64,000 nucleotides of DNA, from the NCBI RefSeq assembly GCF_030013595.1, contig NZ_CP122768.1; one strand, given 5' to 3'. The position numbers and the translations under genes were made by a program. Positions 1 to 42,523 of this stretch are shown piece by piece; positions within the stretch are counted from its first letter, which is position 1; the number at the start of each line of letters is the position of its first letter. Below the pieces are notes generated by a model. The model saw only the letters and a list, made by a program, of their open reading frames with translations, made no database searches and was not told the origin of the DNA. This DNA comes from Escherichia coli (GTDB lineage: Bacteria > Pseudomonadota > Gammaproteobacteria > Enterobacterales > Enterobacteriaceae).

Positions 1-1
1 G

Positions 2-13921: not shown

Positions 13922-13937
13922 TGACTTACTAACCAAT

Positions 13938-13977
13938 GCCCCTATCGTTATAATACACGGTAGGGGCGTTTTTGTTT
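13938..13977 (+). terminator. Strong hairpin plus T-run immediately upstream of the integrase gene (a TATAAT hexamer sits in the loop)
   Basis: GCCCCTATCG-ttataataca-CGGTAGGGGC followed by GTTTTTGTTT. Confidence 0.6.
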
Positions 13978-13986
13978 GGAAATGGT

Positions 13987-15666: not shown

Positions 15667-15704
15667 GCGGCCTAAATCGACGTATAACGAGCTAAAACAG
15701 TTAA

Positions 15705-15727
15705 GGGGTACAGATGTACCCCTTTTT
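15705..15727 (+). terminator. Rho-independent terminator after integrase
   Basis: GGGGTAC-agat-GTACCCC followed by TTTTT. Confidence 0.7.
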
Positions 15728-16245: not shown

Positions 16246-16254
16246 GATTCCTTA
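16246..16254. repeat. IS1 target-site duplication, left copy (GATTCCTTA)
   Basis: Identical 9-mer at 17023-17031, directly abutting both IS1 ends. Confidence 0.9.
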
Positions 16255-16309
16255 GGTGATGCTGCCAACTTACTGATTTAGTGTATGATGGTGTTTTTGA
16301 GGTGCTCCA

Positions 16310-16585
16310 GTGGCTTCTGTTTCTATCAGCTGTCCCTCCTGTTCAGCTACTGACGGGGTGGTGCGTAACGGCAAAAGCACCGCCGGACATCAGCGCTATC
16401 TCTGCTCTCACTGCCGTAAAACATGGCAACTACAGTTCACTTACGCCGCCTCTCAGCCCGGTACGCACCAGAAAATCATTGATATGGCCATGAATGGCGT
16501 CGGATGTCGCGCCAGTGCACGCATTATTGGCGTTGGCCTCAACACGATTTTCCGCCACTTAAAAAACTCAGGCCGCAGTCGGTAA
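16310..16585 (+). CDS. insA: IS1 InsA
   Basis: 91 aa, [39 protein letters not shown]... Confidence 0.95.
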
Positions 16586-17007
16586 CCTCGCGCATACAAC
16601 CGGGCAGTGATGTGATTGTCTGCGCTGAAATGGACGAACAGTGGGGCTACGTCGGTGCTAAATCACGTCAGCGCTGGCTGTTTTACGCGTATGACAGGAT
16701 GCGGAGGACGGTTGTGGCGCACGTCTTCGGTGAACGCACTCTGGCCACACTGGAGCGTCTTCTGAGCCTGCTGTCGGCCTTTGAGGTCGTGGTATGGATG
16801 ACGGATGGCTGGCCGCTGTATGAATCACGCCTGAAGGGAAAGCTGCACGTTATCAGCAAGCGTTATACTCAGCGCATTGAGCGGCATAACCTGAATCTGA
16901 GACAACATCTGGCAAGGCTGGGACGGAAGTCACTGTCGTTCTCAAAATCGGTGGAGCTGCATGACAAGGTCATCGGGCATTATCTGAACATAAAACACTA
17001 TCAGTAA
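16504..17007 (+). CDS. insB: IS1 InsB' frame (expressed as an InsAB' transposase by -1 frameshift)
   Basis: 167-aa ORF in the -1 frame relative to insA, overlapping it at AAAAAAC. Confidence 0.9.
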
Positions 17008-17031: not shown

Positions 17032-18215
17032 GAAGTGTATTCCGGTAGCAATAAAATCAATCCTTATTGGTATCAAAGGGAGGCAGTCTTTCAGGGTATC
17101 CACAATCGCCGTAGAATGCTGGTTCTTCCTACCAGTGCCGGAAAGTCATTGATTGCTTGTATGCTGTCTCGTTGGTACTTAGAGAACTACACCGGAAAAG
17201 TGTTAATCATTGTTCCGACTACATCGCTAGTGGTTCAAATGAGGGATGATTTCATCGATTATAGGCTATTCCCTTATGAAGCAATTCATACAATGATGAG
17301 TGGTAGCGGGAAACATCCGGGAGACAGGTTAATCACGGTTAGTACCTGGCAATCAGCTTGCAAGATGCCTCCTGAATGGTTCCGACAATATGGAATGTTG
17401 ATAGTTGATGAATCGCATAAGGCTAGTGCCAAAAATATTACCAATATCATCAATGGAATGAATCATTGCCAATTTAAGATCGGCATGACTGGTTCCCCGA
17501 AAGAATCAAAGTGCCATTTAATGCAGTATGTCGGGCTTTTCGGTGATATTTCTAAGATCGTGAGTATTGACCGCCTGATGGAAGAAGGGCAGGTGACAAA
17601 ACTGAAAATTAACTGTCTTTTCCTTCGTTATACAGATGAGGAATGTAGCGCGGTTAAGGGGCGAGAATATGCGGAAGAGATCAAGTATATTACGTCTAAC
17701 CCACGACGAAATAAGTTTGCTTGTAATTTGGCGCTAAAACTAGCTAAGAAGGGCGAAAACGTATTCCTGATGTTCCGCAATACTAAGCACGGAAAACTTA
17801 TGTATGATGCGTTACAGAAGGTACACGACAAGGTTTATTATATTGACGGTGGAGTTAAGACAGAAGAACGTGATGAATTTAAGAAAATGGCGGAGGGTGA
17901 CACCGGGATCATTTGCGTTGCATCCTATGGTGTGTTCTCTACTGGTGTTTCAATTAAGAATTTGCATCATGTTATTTTCGGTCATCCAGTGAAGGAATCA
18001 ACTATCGTTCGTCAGAGTATCGGTCGTGCATTGCGTAAACATGGTTCTAAGGATATTGCAACGGTCTGGGATCTTATAGATCATCTGTGTATATTCGGTC
18101 GTAACGGAAAAGTCAAGCATAAAAATTATGCGGTAAAACATGCACTTGAGAGAATCCGCTATTATCTAACCGACAAGTTCAGCTATGCAACTAAAACAAT
18201 TGCTATATAACAAAA

Positions 18216-18237
18216 AAGCGCCCACTAGAGGCGCTTT
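18216..18237. terminator. Bidirectional terminator between the convergent helicase and lysis genes
   Basis: AAAAAAGCGCC-cactagag-GGCGCTTT. Confidence 0.6.
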
Positions 18238-18241
18238 AATT

Positions 18242-18595
18242 TTATCCATTCCATCGTGATTTTTTCGATCTGGAATCGATATGCGTAAAGGTTTTATATT
18301 TGCCTAAGCCGTATTGAGTAGGATATTTCCCATCAAGATAAGCATGGACAATATCAGGGGAGACACCCTTGATCACAATGTCAGCCGCACGGCCTCGAAC
18401 GTGATAGCTGTTGGTTGCACCGCCTACATTCTTGTTATGAGTCGGGCAACGGTTGCCACTGTTAATAATCACTGGTTTACCGAAGTGCTCTCGTACATCC
18501 TCAAGAATTACCAGTAATTCAGCGTCGATTGTATCATAATCACATTTTCCGCATTTACATTTAAATTCCTTGCGAGAAAAATGCTTACTTAACAT
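18242..18595 (-). CDS. Endolysin, peptidase M15 (zinc D-Ala-D-Ala/L-Ala-D-Glu peptidase-like)
   Basis: 117 aa. SYHVRGRAAD and FTHID match the H-x6-D...H zinc triad of the M15A family. Last gene of the late operon. Confidence 0.7.
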   Translation of the reverse strand: MLSKHFSRKEFKCKCGKCDYDTIDAELLVILEDVREHFGKPVIINSGNRCPTHNKNVGGATNSYHVRGRAADIVIKGVSPDIVHAYLDGKYPTQYGLGKYKTFTHIDSRSKKSRWNG

Positions 18596-18604
18596 ATTAC
18601 CCCC

Positions 18605-18952
18605 TTAGATCATTTCGAAGATATAACCAATAAAGCGCATACCCTTGATATAATAAGGAGCAGTGCCTACACACACCGCGCGTGCATCGCCCAGACAGTT
18701 AAAGCTATAAGGATTAACTACATCGACTTCTTGCCCTACACGAAAACGATATTTAGGACGTTTAGCCAATGTAGCGACACAAAACACGGTCCCTTTTTCA
18801 TGATCGCGGATACATTCTTTATATTGTTTATGTTTAACTCTCTTCGCCTCAAAATCATGTGTCATGGATTCTGGGCTAATGCCATTGATAAAAATACCGG
18901 AAAGCTGGTCGACCGGATAAGTAGGAAATTCAGTAAAAATATTTTTAGCCAT
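18605..18952 (-). CDS. Hypothetical phage protein, 115 aa
   Basis: ORF with an SD. No motif recognised. Confidence 0.5.
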   Translation of the reverse strand: MAKNIFTEFPTYPVDQLSGIFINGISPESMTHDFEAKRVKHKQYKECIRDHEKGTVFCVATLAKRPKYRFRVGQEVDVVNPYSFNCLGDARAVCVGTAPYYIKGMRFIGYIFEMI

Positions 18953-28845: not shown

Positions 28846-29352
28846 TTAAGAGATTTTCAAAGTCTGCTTAGTGCCAGTCTTCTTAATGTTGGTAAGGAAA
28901 GCAGCCGGAGGATTGCTTAACCAGTAATAATGAAAACCACTTTGCATACTGTTATAAGGAACAGTGACAGCAGCACCACCCAAATTAACGGTTATATTCC
29001 CCGCTCTACCGTTCTGGAGATATACAGCCATAGTAGGAGTACCACCATTGAATTGACCAACGATAACGCCAATCAGACGCCCTACGCCCACGTTTTCGGG
29101 GTTCTCCATAGATCCTTTACCGCGCATGTCAGTTACTGGATAGTTTGAAGCAGTTACACCCCAGTTATTACCCAATGAAGTAGACCACGCAGCAGTAGCT
29201 ACAACCGTATCCATACCACGACCACACATCGCGCTCATATTACCAGGTACACCAACTTTTAACGCTTGCATAGCCTCACGCATCCATCTCTTGCCAGTTA
29301 CAGAAACAGCCGATGATCCGACCCAGCCGGGCTTATTAACGACATTTGCCAT
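28846..29352 (-). CDS. Hypothetical tail-region protein, 168 aa
   Basis: ORF with a GGAG SD, located downstream of the terminator that follows the tail-tube gene. Confidence 0.5.
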   Translation of the reverse strand: MANVVNKPGWVGSSAVSVTGKRWMREAMQALKVGVPGNMSAMCGRGMDTVVATAAWSTSLGNNWGVTASNYPVTDMRGKGSMENPENVGVGRLIGVIVGQFNGGTPTMAVYLQNGRAGNITVNLGGAAVTVPYNSMQSGFHYYWLSNPPAAFLTNIKKTGTKQTLKIS

Positions 29353-29367
29353 TTTTATTACTCCAAT

Positions 29368-29395
29368 AAAAAAGCCCCACCATTAAGGCAGGGCT
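29368..29395 (-). terminator. Rho-independent terminator (module copy 1 of 3)
   Basis: Minus strand reads AGCCCTGCC-ttaat-GGTGGGGCT followed by TTTTTT. Confidence 0.75.
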
Positions 29396-29400
29396 TATAA

Positions 29401-29526
29401 TTAATCTTTAGCCTTGCGGCTTCGTTTAGCTGTGGCTTTCGCCGTAACAACCTCTAATTCTGGAATCACCACCGCTTCATGTTCCGGCTGTGGTTCCGGT
29501 TCTATTAAAGGAAGTTCTTCGTTAGT
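29401..29526 (-). other. In-frame 41-codon extension after the TGA of the tail-tube gene (candidate readthrough domain)
   Basis: Hand translation gives TNEELPLIEPEPQPEHEAVVIPELEVVTAKATAKRSRKAKD-TAA. It shares blocks with 35200-35286. Confidence 0.5.
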
Positions 29527-30003
29527 TCATCCGGCAGTATTGAAGATTTCCTGTTTCAGCGGTTTGCCGTCCACTGCAAAGGTAAACTCTTTAGTTACCA
29601 CTTCTTCATCGCCACCGTTCATAGCAACTTTAGAAATAAAGCCGTTGAAAGCGGTGCGAATACCAGTCTGTTTTCCGGCGTCAACATAATACTCTATTTT
29701 GATTTGTACTCTTGTGCCGTCTTCGGCAGCTTTGATCAATTTTTCGTGGACACTATCCCCGGGGATGTAATTCACCGTAAGAGTCAGATCAGGAACATTC
29801 AGTTTACCTACTAGTTTACGGTTATACTGAGAAGAGAAGGATTTAACTTCTACAGTACCGCGCTCGATACCAGTTTCAGGAAAACCAGCACACTCTTTAA
29901 TTTCTTCATAGCCCTCATGGTTGAGAGTGGTGTTAGTGGTATCGGCGTGATAGAACAGACTTACCAGACCACCAGTAAAAATATCTTTAAATTGCTGAGA
30001 CAT
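29527..30003 (-). CDS. Major tail tube protein, 158 aa
   Basis: Small and strongly codon-optimised. Lies upstream of the chaperones and TMP and is followed by a terminator. Paralogous to the N-terminal half of 33598-34431. Confidence 0.6.
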   Translation of the reverse strand: MSQQFKDIFTGGLVSLFYHADTTNTTLNHEGYEEIKECAGFPETGIERGTVEVKSFSSQYNRKLVGKLNVPDLTLTVNYIPGDSVHEKLIKAAEDGTRVQIKIEYYVDAGKQTGIRTAFNGFISKVAMNGGDEEVVTKEFTFAVDGKPLKQEIFNTAG

Positions 30004-30058
30004 AGAATTACCCCTTAATTAAATTGTTATTACGGGGGAACTAGTCCCCCGACTTTTA

Positions 30059-33000
30059 TTATTTAGTTGCTTTGAGTTCGGCAATTTCTTTCTGTAATGC
30101 TTCGATCTGGGCTTTATATTTGGCGTCCATTTCCTGAATAGCTTTAATAATCAAGGCATTAACAGCGGAGTTAGAAATAGTCTTAATTGCTTCTGGATTT
30201 TCTGGATCTTCGGTGGATTGAATACCTACTGCTTCCGGCAACACTTCTTCCAGATCCTGAGCAATAATACCTACTTCGCGTTTAATCACTGTGTCATCAG
30301 AAAGAGATTTAACTTTATCGTAGGTGTAGACTTTCAGGGAGTTTACTTTCTCTAATGCGCCGTCCTGTAATTCTTCCTTGTTGATTTTAAGGCGAGCATC
30401 AGAACGAATGTACACATCGTTAAAGCTACCGTTTCTGGATGCGCTTAAATCACCAGCCGCGTTAAAGTCAAACGTTGCATCGTGTACGTGCATACGCACC
30501 ATAGCATTTCCGATAGTACCGCTAGGAACATGTACACCCATTGCTGCGATATGATATTTACCTTGATGGGTTGCTTTCCATACGTTATGAGCGGAATCGG
30601 TTGATTGTTGACAGTCGACCTGAATACCAGAAGCACGATCACGCCAGCTAGTCCAACTACCACCAGCAACGCTACCACGAATAAGACCATTACCGCCACC
30701 GGATACAGTGCCCGTTTCAAGGTGAATCATCTTACCGCCGAATTTCCAGACTTCGGTTTGTTTCTCACCACGGAAGCGAATAACACCAGCGTCATCGCAA
30801 TACATCAAGCCCAACTCTAAACCGTTTGGATCTCTAAACCAGATGTGCTTATTGCCAGCGCGTTTAAACGTAATATCAGCACCAGTTGTTGTGATATTGC
30901 TAGCAACGTTTAGACTACCCGCCATAGAGAACAGAATAGGTCCAGTGCCACCCTGAGTACGTTCAGTATACCAGTGATAACTTGTAGCATCCTTACATTC
31001 AAAAACCTGTTTGCGTTGCTCGTTACCCCATGTATGGAGACTAAATTGCGAAGAAGAACCACGGTTAGCATCAAATGCAATTTCACCAGATTCTACACGT
31101 ACAAAGCCTCTAAAACGTGTTGTTATGTTACCAGTACCCATAGCACGTTCAGTGATAAAATGTGCGCCCTGACTGTCTTCAATCTGTAGGATGTTATCGC
31201 GACCGTTATTGCTATCGCCCCAATGGTTAAACCGGAAGTAATCGCGGGAATTTAATCGCCCAGCGTCGAAAGTCAAATGCCCTTTCTTAATGTAAACGTC
31301 ATTACTAAAGCGAGCGGCTTTGCTTGCACGTTCTAAGACTAATGCACCTTCGTTACCATCACCACCCAAAGTAACATTACCGCTACCAAGATGGTAAATG
31401 AACGGACGATAGCCGTTCCAACTACCAAGTTTATCATTTTCGGCAGTAGACAGAAGATATACGTTTTGACCATCATTACGCCAGAATGCACCATAATTAC
31501 CGTAGATCATGCGGTAAGCGTCGCTATTCATTGAGATGAATTGAGCGTTAGTATAAACTCGTTTTGTGTTACCGGTTGCAAGTTCGATCTGTCCGTCTAT
31601 GTGGTGACGAATAGAAGTACCACCTACATCACTATACCATTCAAAAACGTTAGTATCAGCATTACCATAACCGATCCACCCTTGACGGGTAATAGATCCA
31701 GTCCGATTATCTTGAAACGTAATATGGTTGGATTGACCAGCAGGACGCCGCAAGGTAATAACATTACTACCGCCACCCAACATCATTCGACCAGAAAGAA
31801 TATTACCTTTATGAGTCCCAGCAATAGAGCTACTAGATTCAACGGTTAGAATCTCCTGAGCATCTGTACTACCCGTGGCGAGTCGATAAGTAGAACCCTG
31901 AACCGTCTCATGCCAGATCATTTCATTATAGTTACTGCGGAATTTACGAATATATTTCCGACCAGTACCCCTATCATTACTCAAGTGAACAATATCATAA
32001 CTATTTTGTGTGTTATCGTCAAAACTCAACACACCTCGTTTGTTTTCGGTGTTGAAAAGAGTAATGATGCGCCCATCAATAACACCAACAGAAGGTTTAA
32101 TTAACGTGGCTTCCGGTGTATCGTGAACAGTCAGATTAACATAAACACTTTTACCAAATTCAACAATAACGTTATCAGTGTAACGCTGATATTTCACATA
32201 AATGTCATAGTTATCACCGGATGTATTGACGGCAAATACATCAAAATCTTTGACGGTATTTCGACGATATGCAACTACGTTAAGTCCTTTAGGTCTATCG
32301 TTACCACTACGGAGAAGAATTTCTACTACATCAACTTGGTCATATGCCGTAACGTTGTAACCATTACCACCATGAATACGGAAAAACACACTACGCCCGT
32401 TTTGTGGAATTGTTGCGGTTGCCAATTTGAAATATGCAGATACGTTTTCGCTAGAATTGGGAACAGACATAACGACGTTTTTAACAAACATCTTATCAAC
32501 TTCGGCTTTGGTGTATGCACCAATCTCGCCAGGAGTCGGCTTATCACCTTCGTGATACATCTTATAGCTAAAGTTCTTCTGTCCTTCTCTATCAAAACCA
32601 TAGGTTTCAACACGAGATCCACCAGACGCATAACGGAAAGTAAATCCGCGACCGTGAGCTTTACCGGCAGAGTGAGGAACGTTAAGAGTTAGATCCATGA
32701 GTCCATCTTGACCATTGGTACGGAAAGCACCAAAGTAGTTAAGATCTCTCGCTGTCTGGTCTTCCAAATAGTTAGCTGTTTTGGTTAACAGATACCCGCC
32801 ATGCTTAGTGTTGGTATTCTTCTTGATGTAAAGAGCATCGTTACTACCTTCAATACCATCAATTCGACGGTTAGCGGCTGCGATCGCTGAATCAGTATCA
32901 GTTTTGTTTTTGTCAACCTTTGCGTTAATAGCGGTATGGTTGCTATTCACCGTCCCTGTAAGGTTACTGATTTTAGTATCAACATCTTTCTTGTTGTCGG

Positions 33001-33520
33001 AAACGACCTTTTCAATCGCTGTTTTGTTAGCTGCAACCGTGCTAGTTAAGCTAGAAATTTTGTTATCTGCATCGGTTTTATTTGCAGTAACAGTTTTAGT
33101 CAAGTTGCTAACGTTGGTGTTAGTGGTATTAACTTTGTTGTTAATCGCGGTGTTATTGTCATTAACCGTCGTGGTTAAAGCTGCGATTTTATTGTCCGCA
33201 TCTCGTTTATTATTTGCTACAGTAGTTTCTATAGCTGATTTGTTAGATGCAACTGTCCCCGTAAGGTTATTGATCTTAGTATCAGCATCGGTTTTATTTG
33301 CCGCGATAGTCGCATCAGTAGTTTTCTTGTTATTGTCTACTTTTGTGTTTAAAGCATTATGACTTTCAGGAGAAACACTTACTTGAACTACTGCGTTATT
33401 TTTATCTTTGGTATAAATTACATGGTCTGCCATCTGAATAGCGATTTCACCGACCTGTAATTGTTCCGGCGTTGGCTTTTTACCAGCCGTCTGTGTGCGT
33501 TTAAATTGGATCGACTGCAT
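30059..33520 (-). CDS. Long side tail fibre with C-terminal intramolecular chaperone (peptidase S74-like) domain, 1153 aa
   Basis: Fibre-type N-terminus (MQSIQFKRTQTAGKKPTPEQLQVGEIA). About four 40-aa NKTDAD-x-KI-x-LT-x-TV repeats. The C-terminus (SDARLKINKEEL...VGIIAQDLEEVLPEAV...coiled coil) is typical of self-cleaving chaperone domains. Confidence 0.75.
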   Translation of the reverse strand: MQSIQFKRTQTAGKKPTPEQLQVGEIAIQMADHVIYTKDKNNAVVQVSVSPESHNALNTKVDNNKKTTDATIAANKTDADTKINNLTGTVASNKSAIETTVANNKRDADNKIAALTTTVNDNNTAINNKVNTTNTNVSNLTKTVTANKTDADNKISSLTSTVAANKTAIEKVVSDNKKDVDTKISNLTGTVNSNHTAINAKVDKNKTDTDSAIAAANRRIDGIEGSNDALYIKKNTNTKHGGYLLTKTANYLEDQTARDLNYFGAFRTNGQDGLMDLTLNVPHSAGKAHGRGFTFRYASGGSRVETYGFDREGQKNFSYKMYHEGDKPTPGEIGAYTKAEVDKMFVKNVVMSVPNSSENVSAYFKLATATIPQNGRSVFFRIHGGNGYNVTAYDQVDVVEILLRSGNDRPKGLNVVAYRRNTVKDFDVFAVNTSGDNYDIYVKYQRYTDNVIVEFGKSVYVNLTVHDTPEATLIKPSVGVIDGRIITLFNTENKRGVLSFDDNTQNSYDIVHLSNDRGTGRKYIRKFRSNYNEMIWHETVQGSTYRLATGSTDAQEILTVESSSSIAGTHKGNILSGRMMLGGGSNVITLRRPAGQSNHITFQDNRTGSITRQGWIGYGNADTNVFEWYSDVGGTSIRHHIDGQIELATGNTKRVYTNAQFISMNSDAYRMIYGNYGAFWRNDGQNVYLLSTAENDKLGSWNGYRPFIYHLGSGNVTLGGDGNEGALVLERASKAARFSNDVYIKKGHLTFDAGRLNSRDYFRFNHWGDSNNGRDNILQIEDSQGAHFITERAMGTGNITTRFRGFVRVESGEIAFDANRGSSSQFSLHTWGNEQRKQVFECKDATSYHWYTERTQGGTGPILFSMAGSLNVASNITTTGADITFKRAGNKHIWFRDPNGLELGLMYCDDAGVIRFRGEKQTEVWKFGGKMIHLETGTVSGGGNGLIRGSVAGGSWTSWRDRASGIQVDCQQSTDSAHNVWKATHQGKYHIAAMGVHVPSGTIGNAMVRMHVHDATFDFNAAGDLSASRNGSFNDVYIRSDARLKINKEELQDGALEKVNSLKVYTYDKVKSLSDDTVIKREVGIIAQDLEEVLPEAVGIQSTEDPENPEAIKTISNSAVNALIIKAIQEMDAKYKAQIEALQKEIAELKATK

Positions 33521-33597
33521 CGAATCACCTCACTATAAAACAGGAATAAGGGAGGCGTTAACCTCCCAACGTTCATGTTTTATTTAGGTACGCAATC

Positions 33598-34431
33598 TTA
33601 ATACTCACCGAAATCGATCCGGTCCGTCTTAGCCACTGCGCCAATTTCGGCTGGCGTAGGCTTCTCGTTTGTTGTATAGACTTTAATCCATTCCGATTTT
33701 CCGTTGTCCTGAATATTTCGTACCCGCAAACGTGGAGCACCGGAAGTATTACACGTTAATTGCCATGCGCCATGCTCATTAGCTTGAAGATGAATTAACG
33801 ATGTATCAGCACCATAAGGGTTAGTGCTAGCCGTTCCTTTGTAGGTTACAAAGCGGTTTCCTGTCAGAGATTCACTATCAATAGGTCCGGTGAATGGGCT
33901 AACGCCTGAGCCTACGCCAAAATCCCCTTGTCGGATGAGTTTTCCCTCGGTCGCTATACCCCTTGCTAGAATCCCGCCATCTGGTTCAAGTTTAAATTCC
34001 AGTGTTACAGCTTTGTTATCACTACCACGGGTTTTATGTGATGTGACGTAAGCATCGAATATACAAAAGTACCCTGTGTTAGCAGCACTATAGCCAGAGT
34101 TCACAACATAGAACATACGGAAGCGTAAAGGTGTTTTATCCTCTACCGCTTTCATCAACATTGCTTGATGTTCGTCATCCAGAACACGGTTTAACGTGAG
34201 TGTCGTCGGTTCCAGTCTACGATAACCAGCAAGTTTCCCCGTAGCGTCCTGATCGTACTCTTCCAGAGTTTCAATCTCTGTGGATTCTGTTAGCGTAGGG
34301 AATGCTGCGACGTTCTCAATAGAACTAAAGCTAGGATCGAAAAAGTCGACCTGATTGTCTAGCTGGTTAGAGATCGACACTTCAACATGCGATCCCGTAA
34401 AAATATCTAAGTTATCTTGTGTAATATTCAT
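33598..34431 (-). CDS. Tail-tube-like protein with C-terminal fibre-like domain, 277 aa
   Basis: The N-terminal 150 aa align by eye with the 158-aa tube protein (FP-T-xxE...LTLTxN...). The C-terminal EKPTPAEIGA motif is also present in the fibre (DKPTPGEIGA). Confidence 0.5.
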   Translation of the reverse strand: MNITQDNLDIFTGSHVEVSISNQLDNQVDFFDPSFSSIENVAAFPTLTESTEIETLEEYDQDATGKLAGYRRLEPTTLTLNRVLDDEHQAMLMKAVEDKTPLRFRMFYVVNSGYSAANTGYFCIFDAYVTSHKTRGSDNKAVTLEFKLEPDGGILARGIATEGKLIRQGDFGVGSGVSPFTGPIDSESLTGNRFVTYKGTASTNPYGADTSLIHLQANEHGAWQLTCNTSGAPRLRVRNIQDNGKSEWIKVYTTNEKPTPAEIGAVAKTDRIDFGEY

Positions 34432-34440
34432 TATTACCCC

Positions 34441-34863
34441 TTAAAAACGCGCTAGATAAGAAAATTTAAGGCTAAGTGTCCCAACGATACCCCCATCACT
34501 AGAATCATCGTCATAATCGGTATTAGAAGCTACTGGAGTGATATCTGAAATTGAGAAGCCCAAATCTTTAAAACGTGGGTTATCCGGCTGAATCTGGATT
34601 ATCTGGCAAATACCCTCATGAATTTTGGTTTCATGAATCTGAGAATACAATTGCATTTCGATAACGCATTCAGCTTGCATTGCATTACCGCCACGGACCC
34701 TATTGTAAGTCTCATTCATTCCGGTGATCCAACAAACCACGTCATCACTAAAGCCTTGCTGAGTTTGTTCTACGTTTAAAGCCAGACCTAAATCTTGTTC
34801 GATAATATCCTGCAAGGCGCGTTTGATTTTCAGTCTAGGCATATTATTAACGGTAGCGAGCAT
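34441..34863 (-). CDS. Head-tail/tail completion protein, about 140 aa
   Basis: Start at MLATVNNMPRL (AGGGGG SD). Called on position between the adaptor and tube genes. Confidence 0.35.
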   Translation of the reverse strand: MLATVNNMPRLKIKRALQDIIEQDLGLALNVEQTQQGFSDDVVCWITGMNETYNRVRGGNAMQAECVIEMQLYSQIHETKIHEGICQIIQIQPDNPRFKDLGFSISDITPVASNTDYDDDSSDGGIVGTLSLKFSYLARF

Positions 34864-35137
34864 GTGTACCCCCTGCCAGAGTGATAAAGCAATCAGTTGT
34901 ATTGTCACCATTGCGCTTAACGTATTGAACTTTGAAACGCTGATTTTCTACAGTGACAATATCACCCTGCTTTAAGTCTCCCTCACGACAAAATAGAAAT
35001 TCTGTCTCTGTCATTACCCCTGATTCGTCGGTAGTAGTAATTTCATGATAAGCACGAATTGATTTACCACCTTCCACCGAAAATACAGGAGCACTTCGGA
35101 ACATTCTTGATAATTGTGATTCTGATAATTTGAACAT
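34847..35137 (-). CDS. Head-tail adaptor-like protein, 96 aa
   Basis: Small protein directly after the capsid terminator. Called on position. Confidence 0.4.
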   Translation of the reverse strand: MFKLSESQLSRMFRSAPVFSVEGGKSIRAYHEITTTDESGVMTETEFLFCREGDLKQGDIVTVENQRFKVQYVKRNGDNTTDCFITLAGGTHARYR

Positions 35138-35167
35138 AGTTACCCCCTTTATGGAGTATTTACATAC

Positions 35168-35194
35168 AAAAAAGCCCCACCGTTAGGCAGGGCT
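35168..35194 (-). terminator. Rho-independent terminator (module copy 2 of 3)
   Basis: Minus strand reads AGCCCTGCC-taac-GGTGGGGCT followed by TTTTTT. Confidence 0.75.
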
Positions 35195-35199
35195 AATTA

Positions 35200-35286
35200 T
35201 TATTTTGCTTTCGGTGGACGTCCCACCTTTTTAGCTGTGGCTTTCGCCGTAACTACCGGAATTTCTTCCGGCAATTCTTCGTTATT
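35200..35286 (-). other. In-frame 28-codon extension after the TGA of the capsid gene (candidate readthrough domain)
   Basis: Hand translation gives NNEELPEEIPVVTAKATAKKVGRPPKAK-TAA. Confidence 0.5.
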
Positions 35287-37293
35287 TCACTCTTCGCCAA
35301 TTTTCAGAACTTTCAGAGCTTCCGGCTGTGCTACAACGTAGTCCAAATCTACAAAGATACGAGGCACTACCGCACCACGGTCACGGTATGTAGTTAGATC
35401 CATATCCAGTTCCAGACCGCCCCACTCACCGATGGTAATACCGGAGAAGTCACCCAGAACGATGTGGTCTGCCGGAATAACGCCAGAAGTAACTACTTCG
35501 TAACCAGCCAGTTTGCCGTTTTCGATGATATAACCGGAAACGCCGTTATCTTTCAGGGTAGATTCCAGTTCGGCAGCAGTTGCACCGCTCATTGCAAACT
35601 TGATCGCCTGAGCAGGAACGCCAGCGTCGGTCAGTGCTGCAATTTCTTTCAGGAAGTCTTTATAAGAGAAAGCAGCTTTCTTGGTAACGCGGCTAGCGTC
35701 TACCAGTTGCTTAACCAGACCAGCCGGACCACGAGCATTTTCTTTATCAGACAGAATCAGTTGTTCCAGTTTGATACGAACAGCTTTGTTAATGTGATCA
35801 GTGATCAGGGTAGCGATGCCCGGAACGGTTTTCAGCGACTGACGGCTGATCGGGTTGCCACCAGCAAAAGTTTTCGGAGACAGTTTCACGTTCGCAAATT
35901 CAGCTTTGCTTTCCGGTGCAGCACCGTTTTCATCAACGAAGCCGAAAGCGTCAACGCTGGAAGCGGTCATTTTTGGAATAGCGGTCGGGGAGTTCAAGCC
36001 ACTGTAAACAGTCACACCCAGACGACCCAGACACGAAGCAGGAAGCAGCATTTCGATGTAGGATTCAGTCATCAGTTTTTCGTCAGTGATAGCGGTCAGG
36101 TCGGCTTTGGTGTTACCAGCAGAAGCAGCACGCAGAGCAGCAGCCGGAACGAATACAGAGCCACCACGAGCAGCACGACCACGCTGCATAGTTGCAGTAG
36201 CAGCCATTGCGGAATATTCAGCTTCGTTAGCGCCGAGCACGTCGCCATCTACCAGGGAGCGGATTACGTTATTAAGATCGAAAGTTTTTTCCATGATTTG
36301 TTCCTTATTAATTTGTTCGTTATTACGTTGAGCATTGGTAATGTTATTTAGTGCCTTAGTGCGGAATGCTTCCGGCGTCATGTCTTTAATTGCCAATGCG
36401 CGTGCTAATTCAGAGTCATCAATATTTAGTTCGCGTGCAATTTCGCGAATTTCTAATTCGTCTTCTTCGGAACGTTCAGCCACTTCCTCGGTTTTTTCTT
36501 CTTCAACCGGAGCGGCTTCACGTTCTTCTTTTACTTCTTCTGTTTCCCGAACAGTTGAACTATCATCATCAACACTTTCAGGATGTTCAGCGTCTTTTCC
36601 GTCTTCGAGATTTTCATCTTCTTTATTCTCTTCAACTTGGCGCTCTTGAGTTTCTTCAACTTCCGGTTCTTTATTTTCTTCTACCGGAGTTTCTTCAACC
36701 TGAGCGGCTTCTTGTTCTTCTTTGATTTCTTCGATTTGTTCTTTAGTCATATCGCGTTTAGCCCCCAAATTAACTGTGATAGTATTTAGAGAGCGATTTA
36801 AACCGACCGTATCGTCTGCGGGCACCGACACCCATGAAATCTCGTGAGGAATCCATTTAGAAACAATGAGTTGCGATTTAGCGTAGTCGATGTGATATTC
36901 TTTAATGTCATAACCGACAGAAATTTTTTCCATCGTACCTTCAATGACTTTATTGCGAATATCATTAGCCAAAGTGCCATGCTTAGAGAATCTAACGGTC
37001 GCACGGCCTACGTTATCCGCATCGATTCGAGCGTTACAAACGACACCAATGTGATTATCGAAATTGTGATTGAACAGCAACGGAGCGTTATTATTCAGAC
37101 GAGACAGATCAACCGCTTCCGGTGTATGTACCAGAATTTCATCTAATACCACCATTTCTTGATTTTGCTCATCCCAAAATTGGCGCTGATAAGGCTGTGT
37201 ACTTGAGAAAGCAATTTCAAATTCGTATTGATCGTTATGCCCTTCATTAATAACTCCACCGTAACCGTTAAGATCGCGGCGAAATTTAAGCAT
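35287..37293 (-). CDS. Prohead protease - acidic scaffold-like linker - HK97-fold major capsid protein, single 668-aa ORF
   Basis: The N-terminal roughly 170 aa resemble HK97-family prohead serine proteases (LLFNHN..., ISVGY). Residues about 180-330 are Glu-rich and repetitive. The C-terminal roughly 335 aa are MCP-like and highly codon-optimised. Confidence 0.7.
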   Translation of the reverse strand: MLKFRRDLNGYGGVINEGHNDQYEFEIAFSSTQPYQRQFWDEQNQEMVVLDEILVHTPEAVDLSRLNNNAPLLFNHNFDNHIGVVCNARIDADNVGRATVRFSKHGTLANDIRNKVIEGTMEKISVGYDIKEYHIDYAKSQLIVSKWIPHEISWVSVPADDTVGLNRSLNTITVNLGAKRDMTKEQIEEIKEEQEAAQVEETPVEENKEPEVEETQERQVEENKEDENLEDGKDAEHPESVDDDSSTVRETEEVKEEREAAPVEEEKTEEVAERSEEDELEIREIARELNIDDSELARALAIKDMTPEAFRTKALNNITNAQRNNEQINKEQIMEKTFDLNNVIRSLVDGDVLGANEAEYSAMAATATMQRGRAARGGSVFVPAAALRAASAGNTKADLTAITDEKLMTESYIEMLLPASCLGRLGVTVYSGLNSPTAIPKMTASSVDAFGFVDENGAAPESKAEFANVKLSPKTFAGGNPISRQSLKTVPGIATLITDHINKAVRIKLEQLILSDKENARGPAGLVKQLVDASRVTKKAAFSYKDFLKEIAALTDAGVPAQAIKFAMSGATAAELESTLKDNGVSGYIIENGKLAGYEVVTSGVIPADHIVLGDFSGITIGEWGGLELDMDLTTYRDRGAVVPRIFVDLDYVVAQPEALKVLKIGEE

Positions 37294-37338
37294 TTAATCA
37301 CCTTTAATTAATTGGGGGCATTGCGCCCCCGTTGGTTA

Positions 37339-38850
37339 TTAGGGATCGGCTGGGGAATTTTTTTCTTCACCCTCGCCATCAACGATAATATTTAGTGCGC
37401 TCTTTTCGGCTTGAATCTCTGAGAATACTTTTTCAGGATCATCACCACGTTCAAGAATAACGGCAGTACGTGATTTAAGTCCTTTATCAATTAAAGCAAT
37501 CTCGGCGCTTACGTCTTTAAATGGATCGACGGATTCAAAACGAGGACGAATAATAGTAGTGTTGTCGATAATATGCGGAATTGCAGTAATACGAATCGGA
37601 ACAATACCACGCGCGGAATAATGGCGTAGATATGCTTCGAAAATTGGCAATACCACTGTTTCAATCAATTTGTTTTGCAGTGCTTTAACTCGTGTGCGCT
37701 GGGTTAATTCACCGAAACGTGCGGCTGAGTAGTTGATCTGGCTAGTATCACCAGTCAAGCCCTGTTTAAACACGCCTAAGCCCATTGATACGCTAGTAAA
37801 CATCGCATCATTGAAGCTGTTAAAGTCATCACCGCTTTGCGTCGCCTGGATGCTCTTGATCGTTGCCCCTTCCGGCAATTCCTGAATAGTACCCGGTGCA
37901 AAATCCTGTACTACTTCCGGCGCTTGATATTGTTCATCCTCTTCACCAGTATCAAAATCGTCACCAGAATCTTTCGGACGTTCGATAAAGCCCATAGAAC
38001 TAGCCGCAATACGTTTCTGGACGATCGCAGTTTCGCGGAATGCGTCTTGATGTGCGATATCCTTAATCACTGGCAGGAAATCAGTCACACCACGCAGGGA
38101 TTCAGACGCAAGTGGTTGATAATAATGGAATACTTGCGAAGCATCGACGCGATAGTTATCACCTGTGTAAGTCTGAGTCAGTAGGTTGATTTTACGAAAC
38201 CAATATGCAACAGGGCGCATTGTTTCTACGTCATACTCGATCCCCTGATAGATAGCACGTTCTTTGCTTATTTCACGGTTTAGCGACCAGTCGCACTTAT
38301 CAGCAGACAGGATGGAAACATTTAACTCATTGTTTTCTTTGGTTAAAACGATGAAGCACTCACCACCCATAACGCGCTCACGTTCAGCCATTACCAGCAG
38401 TTCACGGAAGTTAAAGCGACCGTTACGAGAGAAGCGTTTAGCGTTCTGCGCCCACTTCCAGAAAGCATTCTCGATCTGCTTATTCAGTGCGCTATCAAGT
38501 TTGCCATTTGATTTAACGATTGACGGCTTCGGATCTAGGCCAGTACCTACCACCATATCGGTGATGTATTGCGTGTAGCGACTGCCAACGGAAGTGTTTA
38601 AGGCCAGAGTACGACCCTGATCATAAAGGCGCTCACCGTTCGATTTGAGAGCCTTATTGAAGGTTCCTGTAATGGTGTCTTGTTGAAGTGATCCATCAAT
38701 ACGATCACCAACCAGTCCTAAACTACGAGTCGCCAGAGATTTCTGGTATCTTTCTATAGATTTGTCGATGAAAATTTTTGGTTGTTGCTGGCGGTGATTA
38801 GTTTTAACTGGAGTTTCTACCGCCTTTTTGCGTCGAAAAAGATTAAACAT
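37339..38850 (-). CDS. Portal protein (lambda gpB family)
   Basis: 503 aa, positioned between the terminase/W-like genes and the protease-capsid gene. Sequence character resembles lambda-family portals. Confidence 0.75.
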   Translation of the reverse strand: MFNLFRRKKAVETPVKTNHRQQQPKIFIDKSIERYQKSLATRSLGLVGDRIDGSLQQDTITGTFNKALKSNGERLYDQGRTLALNTSVGSRYTQYITDMVVGTGLDPKPSIVKSNGKLDSALNKQIENAFWKWAQNAKRFSRNGRFNFRELLVMAERERVMGGECFIVLTKENNELNVSILSADKCDWSLNREISKERAIYQGIEYDVETMRPVAYWFRKINLLTQTYTGDNYRVDASQVFHYYQPLASESLRGVTDFLPVIKDIAHQDAFRETAIVQKRIAASSMGFIERPKDSGDDFDTGEEDEQYQAPEVVQDFAPGTIQELPEGATIKSIQATQSGDDFNSFNDAMFTSVSMGLGVFKQGLTGDTSQINYSAARFGELTQRTRVKALQNKLIETVVLPIFEAYLRHYSARGIVPIRITAIPHIIDNTTIIRPRFESVDPFKDVSAEIALIDKGLKSRTAVILERGDDPEKVFSEIQAEKSALNIIVDGEGEEKNSPADP

Positions 38851-38860
38851 GATTTACCCC

Positions 38861-39355
38861 TTATCGCGTAAGACGTAATTTGATATTTTTAATCGGACTA
38901 ATTCCCTGTTTACGTCGTTCGGCTTGAATTAATTTAGATAACTGACGTTCATAATCAGTCTTCAATTGCTGGAGAACACCCAATGACTCATAGGCGAAAG
39001 TATTCCCTTTCACGGTCATTTGAGATAATGCGGCTTCGTCCCCAGATAGCCTGGCGAAAATAACTTGCTCGATTACAGAAATCGTTTCGCGCAGATGTTC
39101 TTTTTTGGATTGTTTGGCGAATACTGGCAAAACAGTTAATTCCTGCATTGATACCAGTTCTTCATCAAGAGTAATAACAATGGTCATCTTCCCTTCTGGA
39201 AAGTCTAACGTTTTAATCTCGTGATTTTCCGGTGCATCATCGACCTGATAGACAATGCCTTTGCTATTACCTACCTGAATTGTTACACCCTCTTCATTCG
39301 CAAGCGTGACTTTTTCGCCTTTACGAATTACTAAGGGAATTAGTTCTAAACTCAT
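38861..39355 (-). CDS. Head-tail joining protein, gpW-like C-terminal half with extra N-terminal domain
   Basis: 164 aa, between terminase and portal as lambda W is. The C-terminal helix-rich segment is gpW-like. Confidence 0.45.
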   Translation of the reverse strand: MSLELIPLVIRKGEKVTLANEEGVTIQVGNSKGIVYQVDDAPENHEIKTLDFPEGKMTIVITLDEELVSMQELTVLPVFAKQSKKEHLRETISVIEQVIFARLSGDEAALSQMTVKGNTFAYESLGVLQQLKTDYERQLSKLIQAERRKQGISPIKNIKLRLTR

Positions 39356-39427
39356 AATTACCCCTTATTTAATTGTTATTGGATTAACAATATTTAGGAG
39401 TAAGCCGCCCCGAAGGACGGCGAGTTA

Positions 39428-41332
39428 TTAGAACGATGTTACCCAGCTACGGCCTCTATTTGGGCGTCTGACGATGTTTTGACGTTGTGGTCGTGTGATT
39501 GGCTTAGTTTCTTCGATTTGCTCGTCAGATTGCGATTTAGGAGCTTCTACAGGTTCTTCTGGTTCACGGTTCAAACTATCTTTGATGGCTTCGAGTTTTT
39601 CCCATGACATTTTATTGAGTACATGACGAGAAGCAGCATAGGAATAAGCCAGGCAGTCCAACGCTTCGTTTCGTGTTTGTCCAACTTTTACCCAACGTGT
39701 GGTATTACCCTGCCGTTTCAACTGTTCAGAAAGCAATTGCTCGCAATAGTCATCAGGAACGTCACCAATCTGGAAGACAGTGTGAGGATCGCCATCTCTC
39801 AAGTTCCGGTTAATCATTTCACGGATCATCGTTTTAAGGTTGTTTACGCCCAGAATTTTAAGGGTAAAACCACCCGTTCTTGTGTCTTTTACCGGAAGGA
39901 TTGGTGCATCAACATTGCTTGCGCCTTTAATGGCGGTTAGATTTTGCCACCGACTACAGAATCGATAGATCACGTTTGTAGCTCGTCCGTTCGATGAGTC
40001 CACGAAAGCAGATAACATCGGGATTCGTTCACCGGATCGGGTATAGAATTTAGCTTTCAGGAAGTTGTAAAGCTGGTTATATGCTGGTGATTCGTGGCGT
40101 TCGCAGTTCACATCATAGAATGATCGGTGATCAACTACGCATAGCCCTTTACGAGAAATACCCAGCAAGGTAGATTCCAGACGGTCTTTTTGCTGGTCAA
40201 CTCCACCTACCAGAGCCAGTACATCATCAGGAATATTGTCTAGGCTAATATCAGTTTTCAGCGTTTCTAATTCGTCGGCTGTGCGGTCTTCGTTAAGATC
40301 ATCGAAGGTTTCACCGAGGACTGTATTGTAGAACGTTGCCAGGGACATATTCGCGTAGCTATCAGCAAAGTCCACCACACACGCACGGATAGAACTAAAC
40401 GGAGACATAAGGCGGTTAGCATGAAAACCGATTACTTCCGCGTTTGGTTCGGTGGCGACCCATTCTCCCTGTCCAACAGCACGTAGGCGATCACCCTCGG
40501 TCCAATCGGTTTCACATTCAGGGCAACGGTAAACGGCTGTATCTGGGTTGGGTAATGATTTACCGTTAATCGTATGCCAATCGAAATGTACGTTACTCCA
40601 TTCCATTACGTGCTTGTGTCCGCAATGCTGGCAAACGACATGATATTTTCTCTTATCCGAGAGTTCCCATTGTTGGTTAATCGCCCCATCACGAGCGGTT
40701 GGAGTGGAAGCAATTACGATCCTTGCATCTTCCCCGAAAGTGGTTGCGCGTTGTTCCGCTAGTTGGATCGGGTTCCCTTCGTCTGACTCATCAGCCGCAT
40801 CAACTTCATCAAGAATAATCAAAGGGAGTGTTTTACCGCGAAGATGTGACGGACTATTCAACGACATGAAATACATAAACGATCCGTTACGAAGCTGAAT
40901 AATCGATGAGTTGTTAACGGCATTGCGATCTGATTTGTCGGTGATCATCGCCTTTAATTCTGGTGTTGCCTCTAATACTGGCTTCACCTTACCAGCGATC
41001 CAAGAATTTAGTTCTCTAACGTTACTTTGCAACACCCCAATATTAGTAGGGTTACTCGCGATCCGATGGAAGATAATTCCGTTAAGAATCATGGTCTTAC
41101 CCAACTGTGCCGAACATTTAAACACAATTTTTCTACGGTCTTCGGTGATCGCGTCCATCATTCCACGTTGGAAGGGATGCAATTTAATTAGCGATCCGGC
41201 TTTAACACCATCGGTTGCAACTACATTAGCCTCTACCCATTCGCTAGGTTTCATCGTTTTAGGTGGGCGAATTGCCGCAGAGATATTTTTAAGAATCTTT
41301 TTTAATTTTGCCTTGTTCGAAATCAGTTTCAT
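39428..41332 (-). CDS. Terminase large subunit (lambda GpA family)
   Basis: 634 aa. Walker-A-like CSAQLGKT, DEVD Walker B and CxxC...CxxC (CQHCGH...CPECE), as in GpA-type terminases. Confidence 0.85.
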   Translation of the reverse strand: MKLISNKAKLKKILKNISAAIRPPKTMKPSEWVEANVVATDGVKAGSLIKLHPFQRGMMDAITEDRRKIVFKCSAQLGKTMILNGIIFHRIASNPTNIGVLQSNVRELNSWIAGKVKPVLEATPELKAMITDKSDRNAVNNSSIIQLRNGSFMYFMSLNSPSHLRGKTLPLIILDEVDAADESDEGNPIQLAEQRATTFGEDARIVIASTPTARDGAINQQWELSDKRKYHVVCQHCGHKHVMEWSNVHFDWHTINGKSLPNPDTAVYRCPECETDWTEGDRLRAVGQGEWVATEPNAEVIGFHANRLMSPFSSIRACVVDFADSYANMSLATFYNTVLGETFDDLNEDRTADELETLKTDISLDNIPDDVLALVGGVDQQKDRLESTLLGISRKGLCVVDHRSFYDVNCERHESPAYNQLYNFLKAKFYTRSGERIPMLSAFVDSSNGRATNVIYRFCSRWQNLTAIKGASNVDAPILPVKDTRTGGFTLKILGVNNLKTMIREMINRNLRDGDPHTVFQIGDVPDDYCEQLLSEQLKRQGNTTRWVKVGQTRNEALDCLAYSYAASRHVLNKMSWEKLEAIKDSLNREPEEPVEAPKSQSDEQIEETKPITRPQRQNIVRRPNRGRSWVTSF

Positions 41333-41423
41333 GTAATTACCCTCATTACGAAATATGAAGGTATTTATTAAATTGTTGATATTTTGATAAATATGGGTAT
41401 TAAGGCAGAGTTCTTTATGTCGG

Positions 41424-41453
41424 TTGACGATGGAGAACTTTTTCCGATAAAAT
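41424..41453 (+). promoter_or_regulatory. Sigma70-type promoter for the 41499 gene
   Basis: TTGACG, 18-bp spacer, TAAAAT. Confidence 0.5.
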
Positions 41454-41498
41454 GTAAGTCCTCTAAATAAAGGTGAACATTCACTTTAATTTGGAGAA

Positions 41499-41732
41499 AT
41501 GACTATGACTACTAAAGCTACTCGCGGTCGCCCTGCCCGTTATACTCGTGAACAGATGGCTGATATTGCCTACGCTTACTATACAGCGGATCGCGGGAAG
41601 GAAGCGAAAGAACAGATTCTTAGTGAACATGGGATTTCAGTAGCCCAATTCTATAAGAATATGAAGAAGTTAGACATTAAATTCTATGTTCAGATCGATG
41701 ACGGTCAGATCGTAGAAGCAACAGGTTTTTGA
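41499..41732 (+). CDS. Small DNA-binding protein (N-terminal RGRP AT-hook-like plus HTH), 75-77 aa
   Basis: MTMTTKATRGRPARYTREQM...GISVAQFYKNMKKLDIKF. Paralogue of 45446-45628. The true start may be the ATG at 41505. Confidence 0.6.
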   Translation: MTMTTKATRGRPARYTREQMADIAYAYYTADRGKEAKEQILSEHGISVAQFYKNMKKLDIKFYVQIDDGQIVEATGF

Positions 41733-41740
41733 TTCTCTTT

Positions 41741-41765
41741 GCCACTCTTCGGAGTGGCTTTTTTG
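41741..41765 (+). terminator. Rho-independent terminator (UUCG loop)
   Basis: GCCACTC-ttcg-GAGTGGC followed by TTTTTTG. Confidence 0.8.
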
Positions 41766-41793
41766 TATCTAAGTTATTGATTTTCTCGAACTT

Positions 41794-41836
41794 CACAATT
41801 TGTGGGAGTCGGGAAACATCCACAATTTGTGGGAGT
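41794..41836. repeat. Two direct copies of CACAATTTGTGGGAGT (27-bp period) between convergent terminators
   Basis: Copies at 41794-41809 and 41821-41836 are identical over 16 bp. Each contains the near-palindrome CACAATTTGTG. Confidence 0.8.
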
Positions 41837-41844
41837 TGGATAGT

Positions 41845-41871
41845 AAAAAGCCCCACCATTACGGCAGGGCT
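41845..41871 (-). terminator. Rho-independent terminator (module copy 3 of 3)
   Basis: Minus strand reads AGCCCTGCC-gtaat-GGTGGGGCT followed by TTTTT. Confidence 0.75.
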
Positions 41872-41876
41872 TCTAA

Positions 41877-42428
41877 TCAGATTCCGAAGATGTCACATAG
41901 GTCGGCTGTGTGGCGTTCTTGTTTTGAATAGTAAATCCGTTCAGCTTCATATAACGTGATAGAATCATCATTAACGACGGTTTCAAACTCCCCTTCTATT
42001 ACCCTTTCTGTGTGCGCTTTACTGCGTAATTCGGCCTCTTCCATGCGATATAAGCCAATACAGATACTACCATATACACCATATTTTTTCTCGTCGAGAT
42101 GGCGACGACCTTTGCGTTGTTCGAACGGAAGATCGTAAGCGGTTATCTTTTTGCGGCGAACTCGATCATATCCACTCTCTTTGGCATCAATCATCATACT
42201 AATCAACATCCCACATTTAACAAGGGATTCAAGGCACTGACGAATAGAATTAGTTCTTGATTGTTTTAATTCTGGGTTAGGATCGTAATATGGATTATCT
42301 ATCCATGATTCATGAATAAGGAAATGTACGTCATCAGCCGTTAAAGGCCAACCACCAACACTTTCAACATCGGTCTTAGTACAATCAAACAGATCCAGAA
42401 TGAATTTCTTTTTGTGCGTCATTTTCAT
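41877..42428 (-). CDS. Hypothetical protein, 183 aa (possible winged-helix DNA-binding protein)
   Basis: ORF. The SIRQCLESLVKCGMLIS segment looks like a wHTH recognition region. No firm assignment. Confidence 0.45.
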   Translation of the reverse strand: MKMTHKKKFILDLFDCTKTDVESVGGWPLTADDVHFLIHESWIDNPYYDPNPELKQSRTNSIRQCLESLVKCGMLISMMIDAKESGYDRVRRKKITAYDLPFEQRKGRRHLDEKKYGVYGSICIGLYRMEEAELRSKAHTERVIEGEFETVVNDDSITLYEAERIYYSKQERHTADLCDIFGI

Positions 42429-42523
42429 AATGTTCTATCCTCAAAATACTTAAAAAGTACCATGCCGATTTTCGCGGCATGGTCAAAAAATCACCATACA
42501 CCCAATGGGCGTTTGGTTAAAAA

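Follow-up and report, generated by a model that had tools for sequence, protein, structure and literature searches.

Putative UGA-readthrough cassettes following the major capsid and tail-tube genes of an Escherichia coli prophage

We analysed a 64,000-nucleotide (nt) stretch of Escherichia coli DNA (contig NZ_CP122768.1, assembly GCF_030013595.1; hereafter the window, with coordinates counted from its first letter) that carries a prophage, and in particular the ends of two of its structural genes, the prohead protease-major capsid fusion gene and the tail-tube gene. Both end in a TGA that is followed by an open in-frame extension. Judging from sequence patterns, we consider it probable that the phage carries a programmed-readthrough cassette twice, once after each gene, and that decoding of UGA would yield minor capsid and tube subunits with C-terminal tails. 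We favour programmed readthrough because the TGA-A context is conserved, frame 0 is open, insertions and deletions are codon-sized, the peptide has a distinctive composition, and a covarying RNA stem lies at a fixed distance from the stop.

The capsid gene (35290..37293; minus strand, as are all features below unless stated otherwise) codes for a protein of 668 amino acids (aa) that matches Pfam Phage_capsid (1.3e-25) and Peptidase_S78 (1.1e-9) as well as PHROG 617, major head protein (7.6e-90). It is an HK97-type major capsid protein with the protease fused to it. The alignment to a solved homologue, 8gta_A, reaches to 5 residues from the C-terminus of 8gta_A itself, and the TGA is thus located at the natural end of the capsid fold. 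The tail-tube gene (29530..30003, 158 aa) is identified by PHROG 158, major tail protein (6.7e-22), while the Pfam lambda-like TTP (tail tube protein) families score slightly under the cut-off. RefSeq annotates nothing in either of the two post-TGA regions. Within the structural operon of the window, 14 of the 16 open reading frames (ORFs) picked stop at TAA; TGA is found only in the capsid and tube genes.

The capsid ORF ends ...LKIGEE TGA (35289-35287). Together with the A at +4 this TGA forms the putative leaky stop signal (35286..35289), which is invariant in 38/38 distinct capsid contexts and 23/23 tube contexts. Frame 0 then runs through a 28-codon extension (35203..35286; NNEELPEEIPVVTAKATAKKVGRPPKAK), predicted to consist of an acidic, proline-containing linker and a basic tip, and is closed by two tandem tight stops, TAA TAA (35202-35200 and 35199-35197). 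The first of these lies 5 nt and the second 2 nt before the stem of an intrinsic terminator (35167..35194; AGCCCTGCC-TAAC-GGTGGGGCT, a 9-bp (base pair) stem and a T-run). The preliminary description of this region had reported the TGA, the 28-codon extension up to TAA and the adjacent terminator; their coordinates and sequence proved correct. At the RNA level, a 10-nt spacer (35277..35286), constant in length across the four sequence classes and with a nearly invariant ...G-W-A-G, separates the TGA from a predicted stem-loop, AAUUGCCGGAA-GAAA-UUCCGGUAGUU (35251..35276), with an 11-bp stem and a GNRA loop. Its minimum free energy fold has z = -4.8, it shows compensatory changes, and its pair probabilities are 0.9-1.0. 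The 3' end of the stem is the GTT of a 24-nt block (35230..35253) in common with the tail-tube extension, and within this block there is a mini hairpin, GGCGAAAGCC (GGC-GAAA-GCC; 35239-35248). Another small hairpin, GGTGG-GACGT-CCACC, falls in the basic tip (35213..35227; codons VGRPP). In relatives, one of its U-A pairs has been replaced by C-G through a compensatory change (GTG..CCA to GCG..CCG); the hairpin is missing in the QRKTKE-type variants. On the plus strand the same hairpin reads as a terminator-like site that is followed by TTTTT.

The sister element of the tail-tube gene (29401..29529) comprises TGA-A (TGA at 29529-29527), a 41-codon extension, TNEELPLIEPEPQPEHEAVVIPELEVVTAKATAKRSRKAKD, and TAA; a second in-frame TAA (29395-29397) occurs two codons past the first. 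A predicted long-range stem (AACUUCCUUUAAU ... AUUAGAGGUUGUU; 29446..29516) starts 10 nt after the TGA. The tail-tube terminator (29367..29396) is of the same type as that of the capsid gene and near-identical to it, and both (as 35194-35173 and 29396-29372) are in the top three terminator-like sites of the minus strand over the scanned region, 29000-42500. The 24-nt block, GTTACGGCGAAAGCCACAGCTAAA, was said to be identical in the two extensions; indeed, exact copies are present at 35230-35253 and 29425-29448 and nowhere else in the window, with 0 expected by chance. NEELP is kept at the peptide level only, as had also been noted, its codons being AAC GAA GAA TTG CCG or, in the other copy, AAC GAA GAA CTT CCT. 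The NEELP region takes in the spacer together with the stem's 5' strand, and substitutions within the 24-nt block mostly alter the amino acid yet keep the pairing or sit in loops. As far as the sequences tell, the identical block and the NEELP region are better explained at the RNA level, as stem strand, mini hairpin and spacer. A third terminator of the same type (AGCCCTGCC-GTAAT-GGTGGGGCT; 41845-41880, minus strand) is found 3' of the gene at 41877-42428, which has a TGA-T stop 6 nt before the terminator stem and no extension.

The comparison across relatives covers 61 distinct sequence contexts (38 capsid and 23 tube) with 48 unique extensions, all from E. coli-group prophages. It spans two capsid alleles, 37% identical over their full length, and one tail-tube allele. 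For capsid allele 1, the relatives (33 in IMG/VR, 89-97% identical) were found through the capsid protein, while allele 2 was found by searching IMG/VR and metagenomes for the 24-nt block itself. In 61/61 contexts the gene ends at a TGA and position +4 is an A. In allele 1 this TGA is followed by 28, 42, 43, 44 or 45 open codons up to a TAA (33/33 IMG/VR relatives), this second stop being TAA in 32/32 allele-1 contexts. Allele 2 has TGA-A and a homologous extension of 33, 42 or 44 codons that ends in TGA-TAA or TAA-TAA. The tube allele of the window reads TGA-ACT and continues for 36, 39 or 41 open codons at 16/16 loci. The overall pattern is the same in further metagenomic instances (n=23). 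In the 48 unique extensions taken together, frame 0 contains no stops in 1923 codons, whereas the other two frames contain 103 and 188 (about 1900 codons each). Moreover, all length differences between extensions are multiples of three (48, 27, 15, 6 and 3 nt).

These numbers bear directly on two points of the preliminary description. It had named a lack of conservation in relatives, together with the lack of a phenotype, as grounds for doubting the extension; both TGA+A and the open frame 0 are kept in every one of the 61 distinct contexts. It had also estimated the chance of both post-stop regions being open by accident at about 0.04. The arithmetic is right, but the estimate is weak on its own, since frames often stay open for 28 or 41 codons past a stop: in the window, with genes picked crudely, at least 28 open codons follow the stop in 29% of ORFs and at least 41 in 17%. 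The significance comes from the relatives rather than from the single sequence.

A natural control is provided by tube allele B (58-60% identical to that of the window, 12 loci), which has a TAA stop, no extension and no 24-nt block; the genomes with this allele still keep the TGA extension on the capsid gene. The allele B loci lie at about 17750-18820 in the IMG/VR sequences that we labeled L004, L007, L008, L015, L016, L018, L024, L025 and L028-L031. Six distant protease-capsid genes (DCP80, Alux-21, Bas97, Arya, MQ-4 and VP882) have TAA as their stop, and in each a hairpin follows within ~10-25 nt. Among the best 120 capsid homologues (665-670 aa), none was a fused form in which a sense codon had replaced the TGA. 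A profile of the extension peptides had a single match in 5.8 billion protein clusters, a miscalled ORF of 33 aa. In scans of one genome per species, the protein-based search found nothing and the DNA-pattern search gave one chance match, within a moaC-like gene of a Chlorobiales metagenome-assembled genome.

Two features of allele 2 deserve a mention. The tips of its capsid extensions (L042, L081, L096, L108), KRGRKPKE, are closer to the tube tip KRGRKAKN than to the tips of allele 1, a likeness that points to the two cassettes having exchanged sequence by way of the block they share. In addition, the allele-2 capsid gene (L042, L063, L068, L081) ends ...CAG AAA AAA GNN GAN TGA, with six or seven A before the putative leaky stop. 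A -1 slip at this A run was considered as a route to the extension and rejected, as a stop would be met within a few codons.

The composition of the frame-0 peptide is unusual. Aromatic residues make up 0.2% of it, as opposed to 7% in the other frames; Cys and Met are absent, Asp+Glu account for 21% and Pro for 13%. All classes, non-homologous variants included, share one layout, in which a linker of acidic character (net charge -4 to -9) precedes a basic tip (+5 to +6). The peptide looks selected, and since the composition is frame-specific and the acidic-then-basic layout recurs, the patterns favour a functional peptide over translation alone.

We next consider the RNA. Folding of the extension RNAs compared with shuffled ones gave z = -4.8, -5.4, -3.4 and -1.9. 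In the short capsid class there is an 11-bp hairpin with a GAAA loop that starts 10 nt after the UGA and has undergone a U-A to C-G double change as well as wobble-compatible single changes. A general rule holds for the four classes: 9 nt starting 10 nt past the UGA pair with 9 nt ending at the GTT of the 24-nt block. The strand pairs of the four classes are AAUUGCCGG/CCGGUAGUU, AACCWUCUG/CAGACGGUU, AACAACCCC/GAGGUUGUU and AACUUCCUU/GAAGAAGUU. Strands of one class pair at 5-6 of the 6 variable stem positions, compared with a mean of 2.9 when the strands are taken from different classes. Across 38 distinct sequences in an anchored alignment, the share of paired cells is 90.4%, against 26-48% with the partners slid by 1-3 nt. 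Six of the nine stem pairs have changed on both sides, and the covariation score is 0.279 compared with 0.120 in shuffles (0/500 shuffles reach 0.279). Unbiased partition-function folding assigns the stem a probability of ~0.85-1.0 at pairable positions in 43 of the 48 variants. RNAalifold finds little covariation within the long capsid class or within the tube class, because the sequences are too similar; the signal emerges only across classes.

One alternative, which we regard as unlikely, accepts that readthrough occurs but holds that translation matters and not the peptide: ribosomes reaching the TAA would block the terminator hairpin and in this way set the transcription of the downstream head-completion and tail-assembly genes. 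Such control would account for a second stop that always keeps a distance of ~5 nt to the terminator stem and is backed up in frame, for the occurrence of the same terminator type in both cassettes, and for the relaxed amino-acid constraint on a variable peptide of low complexity. However, it does not require the avoidance of aromatic residues, Cys and Met, nor the linker and tip layout in non-homologous variants. For the distant homologues, a TAA and a hairpin suffice. Late-operon antitermination, if used, would presumably bypass the terminator anyway, and capsid and tube are exactly the genes that other phages extend by recoding (PMC5009743). As to antiterminator pairing, comparison by eye of the block with the terminator arms revealed no convincing complementarity.

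The strong folding and the covarying stems could also belong to a structured 3' untranslated region (UTR), acting as a stabiliser, a processing site or a small RNA with the 24-nt block as its seed, in which the open frame would be incidental. In favour of this, the two paralogous sites agree in the nucleotides of the block although most of its substitutions change the amino acid. Yet RNA structure and coding can coexist, and an untranslated element cannot account for a frame 0 free of stops over 1923 codons when the other two frames have 103 and 188. It likewise leaves unexplained the exclusively codon-sized indels, the TGA-A first stop and the TAA plus back-up at the second, as well as the retention of the frame across the swap to a capsid gene only 37% identical. 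There is no match to an Rfam family either, and we consider this explanation improbable. Even less probable is a separate small gene with an internal in-frame TTG or GTG start. The 33-aa ORF matched by the extension profile (P0121, MGEENLIP...GRPPKAK) has been called in this way from an in-frame TTG in a metagenomic phage, but this start is not conserved, some variants having TCG or TTA there, nor is it preceded by a Shine-Dalgarno-like sequence. Furthermore, frame and sequence are conserved from the first codon past the TGA, and RefSeq calls no gene there. Least probable of all are a chance open frame, which could appeal to how often single sequences stay open this long (29% and 17% of window ORFs, as above), a recent nonsense mutation in a longer gene and insertion of selenocysteine, given that the pattern holds throughout the 61 distinct contexts, on two genes and with two capsid alleles, that the capsid fold ends at the TGA and, for selenocysteine, that the sequence 3' of the TGA differs between classes. 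For selenocysteine, there was also no match at the gathering score to a SECIS-like (selenocysteine insertion sequence) Rfam family in the window, and the loops are GAAA rather than a SelB-binding loop.

Several observations weigh against programmed readthrough that yields functional tails. All of the instances come from one mosaic E. coli/Shigella prophage lineage and are not independent. The ratio of nonsynonymous to synonymous polymorphism (pN/pS) in the extensions is 0.73 (capsid) and 0.43 (tube) as opposed to 0.27 and 0.11 in the adjacent 100 codons of the genes, part of the conservation of the extension's sequence lies at the RNA level, and the Lys-rich tip could partly be due to an A-rich run 5' of the terminator. 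The stem itself is weak in the 39-codon class of the tube (6 bp, probability 0.25-0.64) and in one allele-2 capsid sequence (L081). Its register was chosen after the sequences had been seen; the register is supported by the slid-partner control, the cross-class control and the unbiased folding. According to Firth et al., stimulators of readthrough have a spacer of 7-9 nt, a stem of 10-14 bp and a long loop (PMC3159437). The 10-nt spacer is thus 1-3 nt longer than in the documented cases, and common descent of the first four codons may account for part of its fixed length. Finally, termination at UGA is more efficient in natural E. coli strains than in K-12, so that the basal leak may be well below 1%.

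Under programmed readthrough, most ribosomes would stop at the UGA and produce the normal protein. A minority would decode it, most likely as Trp, through near-cognate Trp-tRNA(Trp) in competition with release factor 2 (RF2). UGA followed by A is described, in a passage of PMC5289835 that cites Engelberg-Kulka 1981, as the E. coli context most prone to misreading by tRNA-Trp, and the level of UGA readthrough is set by the competition between Trp-tRNA(Trp) and RF2 (PMC10570021). This level varies in E. coli with growth state and between cells (PMC10570021). With Trp at the UGA, the capsid junction would read ...LKIGEE-W-NNEELPEEIPVVTAK and the tube junction ...IFNTAG-W-TNEELPLIEPEPQPEHEAVVIPELEVVTAK (...NTAG-W-TNEELP...). 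Ribosomes that read through would add 28-45 codons in the capsid or 36-41 in the tube and end at a tight TAA, backed by another stop, before the terminator. The RNA stem 10 nt after the UGA probably raises readthrough, by analogy with the extended 3' stem-loops of alphaviruses and furoviruses. A phage-encoded opal suppressor tRNA was considered too and rejected: the sole ARAGORN call, a 91-nt tRNA-Gln (34586-34676, plus strand), is antisense to a structural coding sequence, and it is probably a false positive, as Rfam detects no tRNA anywhere in the window.

The few extended subunits would then co-assemble into head and tail, each with a flexible acidic, proline-rich linker that carries a basic tip. 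The C-termini of both proteins are expected to face outwards, in analogy with T7 10B and lambda gpV. The tips might make weak electrostatic contacts with anionic surfaces such as lipopolysaccharide, capsule or mucus or, alternatively, contacts in assembly, with the stop codon keeping the copy number of the tails low. We infer a useful level of readthrough, insertion of Trp, stimulation by the stem, entry of extended subunits into virions and a function of the tails; the role in surface adhesion or assembly contacts is our best guess and the least secure step. More tentatively than the cassette as such, we propose that it represents alphavirus-like, structure-stimulated UGA readthrough duplicated on capsid and tube, in which the dose would follow from competition between tRNA-Trp and RF2 and so from host physiology.

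The resemblance of VGRPPKAK at the capsid tip to an AT-hook, on which the preliminary description had based possible binding to nucleic acid or another polyanion, is weak. Variants with GRPP score 14.2-14.7 bits against a 17.4-bit cut-off for the Pfam AT-hook (PF02178), their core being V/A-G-R-P-P and not R-G-R-P. The core is not conserved either: most variants have QRKTKE, ERKTKAK, RSRKAKD or RGRKAKN in its place and give no match, nor does the tube. No Pfam domain was found in the extension. On the evidence of these variants, the sole conserved trait of the tip is its generic basic character.

Among known systems, a close parallel is the minor coat protein A1 of Qbeta, made by UGA readthrough at ~5% (PMC7026636). 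The host is likewise E. coli, the coat gene ends in a leaky UGA, with A at +4 (PMC5289835), that normal tRNA-Trp decodes, and the product is a low-copy, C-terminally extended subunit; for the present phage, the decoding and the product are predictions from the sequence. Thr is the first residue of the Qbeta extension too, and the linker there is rich in Pro. However, Qbeta is a small single-stranded RNA levivirus with a folded extension of ~196 aa, whereas here a tailed double-stranded DNA prophage would add 28-45 aa of low complexity, and the cassette occurs on two genes with a covarying RNA stem 10 nt downstream.

The choice of genes has its counterpart in the Listeria phages PSA, A118 and A500, in which longer forms of Cps (capsid) and Tsh (tail shaft) are made by programmed frameshifting (PMC5009743). 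There, too, one mRNA of a major capsid and of a major tail gene gives a normal and a C-terminally extended product through recoding at or near the stop. Their ribosomes, in Gram-positive hosts, shift frame by +1 or -1 at slippery codons for proline or lysine; the extensions described here are in frame 0 directly past the TGA, and frames +1 and +2 are closed. A minor C-terminally extended subunit next to the major form is likewise known from 10A/10B of T7 and T3 and from the Ig-like domains at the C-termini of tail tube and capsid proteins of phages (PMC5009743). Those arise by a -1 frameshift or by in-frame fusion and many are folded, unlike the present extensions with no Pfam domain. T7 display makes use of the C-terminus of 10B, the C-terminal domain of lambda gpV faces outwards, and extensions of this sort are surface-exposed accessories.

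The predicted RNA element resembles the stimulators of alphaviruses, furoviruses, tobraviruses and Drosophila kelch in having a stop, a short spacer, a stem of 9-14 bp and a long, poorly conserved loop (PMC3159437). Two islands of nucleotide conservation and compensatory changes are shared with the stimulators of eukaryotic viruses as well (PMC3159437). Those act on the eukaryotic ribosome with a 7-9 nt spacer and mostly UGA-C, in contrast to the bacterial ribosome, 10 nt and UGA-A here, where stimulation is a prediction.

Full-text searches of the literature returned no description of stop-codon readthrough acting on tailed-phage capsid or tail genes. In tailed phages, frameshifting is the only recoding known to lengthen capsid and tail proteins, and readthrough of stop codons is known in phages essentially from Qbeta. 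If the proposed mechanism is true, tailed DNA phages would also use leaky stops, and the bacterial ribosome could be steered by a downstream stem-loop like those of eukaryotic viruses. The prophage would then offer a simple, genetically tractable E. coli system for structure-stimulated readthrough and a natural low-copy display site on both head and tail. Genome annotation would systematically miss such products. In addition, the composition of particles could depend on host physiology, because UGA readthrough varies with growth state and between cells (PMC10570021).

The prophage of the window is present in 54 of 5426 complete E. coli genomes. It has no close relative among isolated phages, and a megablast search of the capsid region against GenBank phages gave no match; the nearest capsid of an isolated phage is that of DCP80 (43% identical, TAA stop). 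In the DCP80 record (L034; PQ671644.1, Escherichia phage DCP80), lambda-type terminase, portal and protease-capsid genes (1-16765) open a sequence of 141 kb that is filed under Straboviridae/Gaprivervirus and may be chimeric or misclassified. A tiny ORF (MSLGAEALDAAPVKKSKSASG) lies 3' of its capsid gene and has a basic tail as well.

The tail module of the prophage is mosaic. Upstream of the fibre gene, the gene at 33598-34431 (minus strand) codes for a 277-aa protein, a second tail-tube paralogue. Its N-terminal domain resembles a tail tube (PHROG 158, 8.3e-10), and ~120 aa at its C-terminus are fibre-like. The fibre gene itself (30059-33520, minus strand) codes for a gp37-like distal subunit of a T4-type long tail fibre, with 80-83% nucleotide identity to phages of the Phi1/RB49 group. 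Together with a gp38-like adhesin gene (28846-29352, minus strand) it brackets the tail-tube gene of this siphovirus-like prophage, that is, receptor-binding genes of a myovirus surround the tail tube as a mosaic within a lambda-like tail module.

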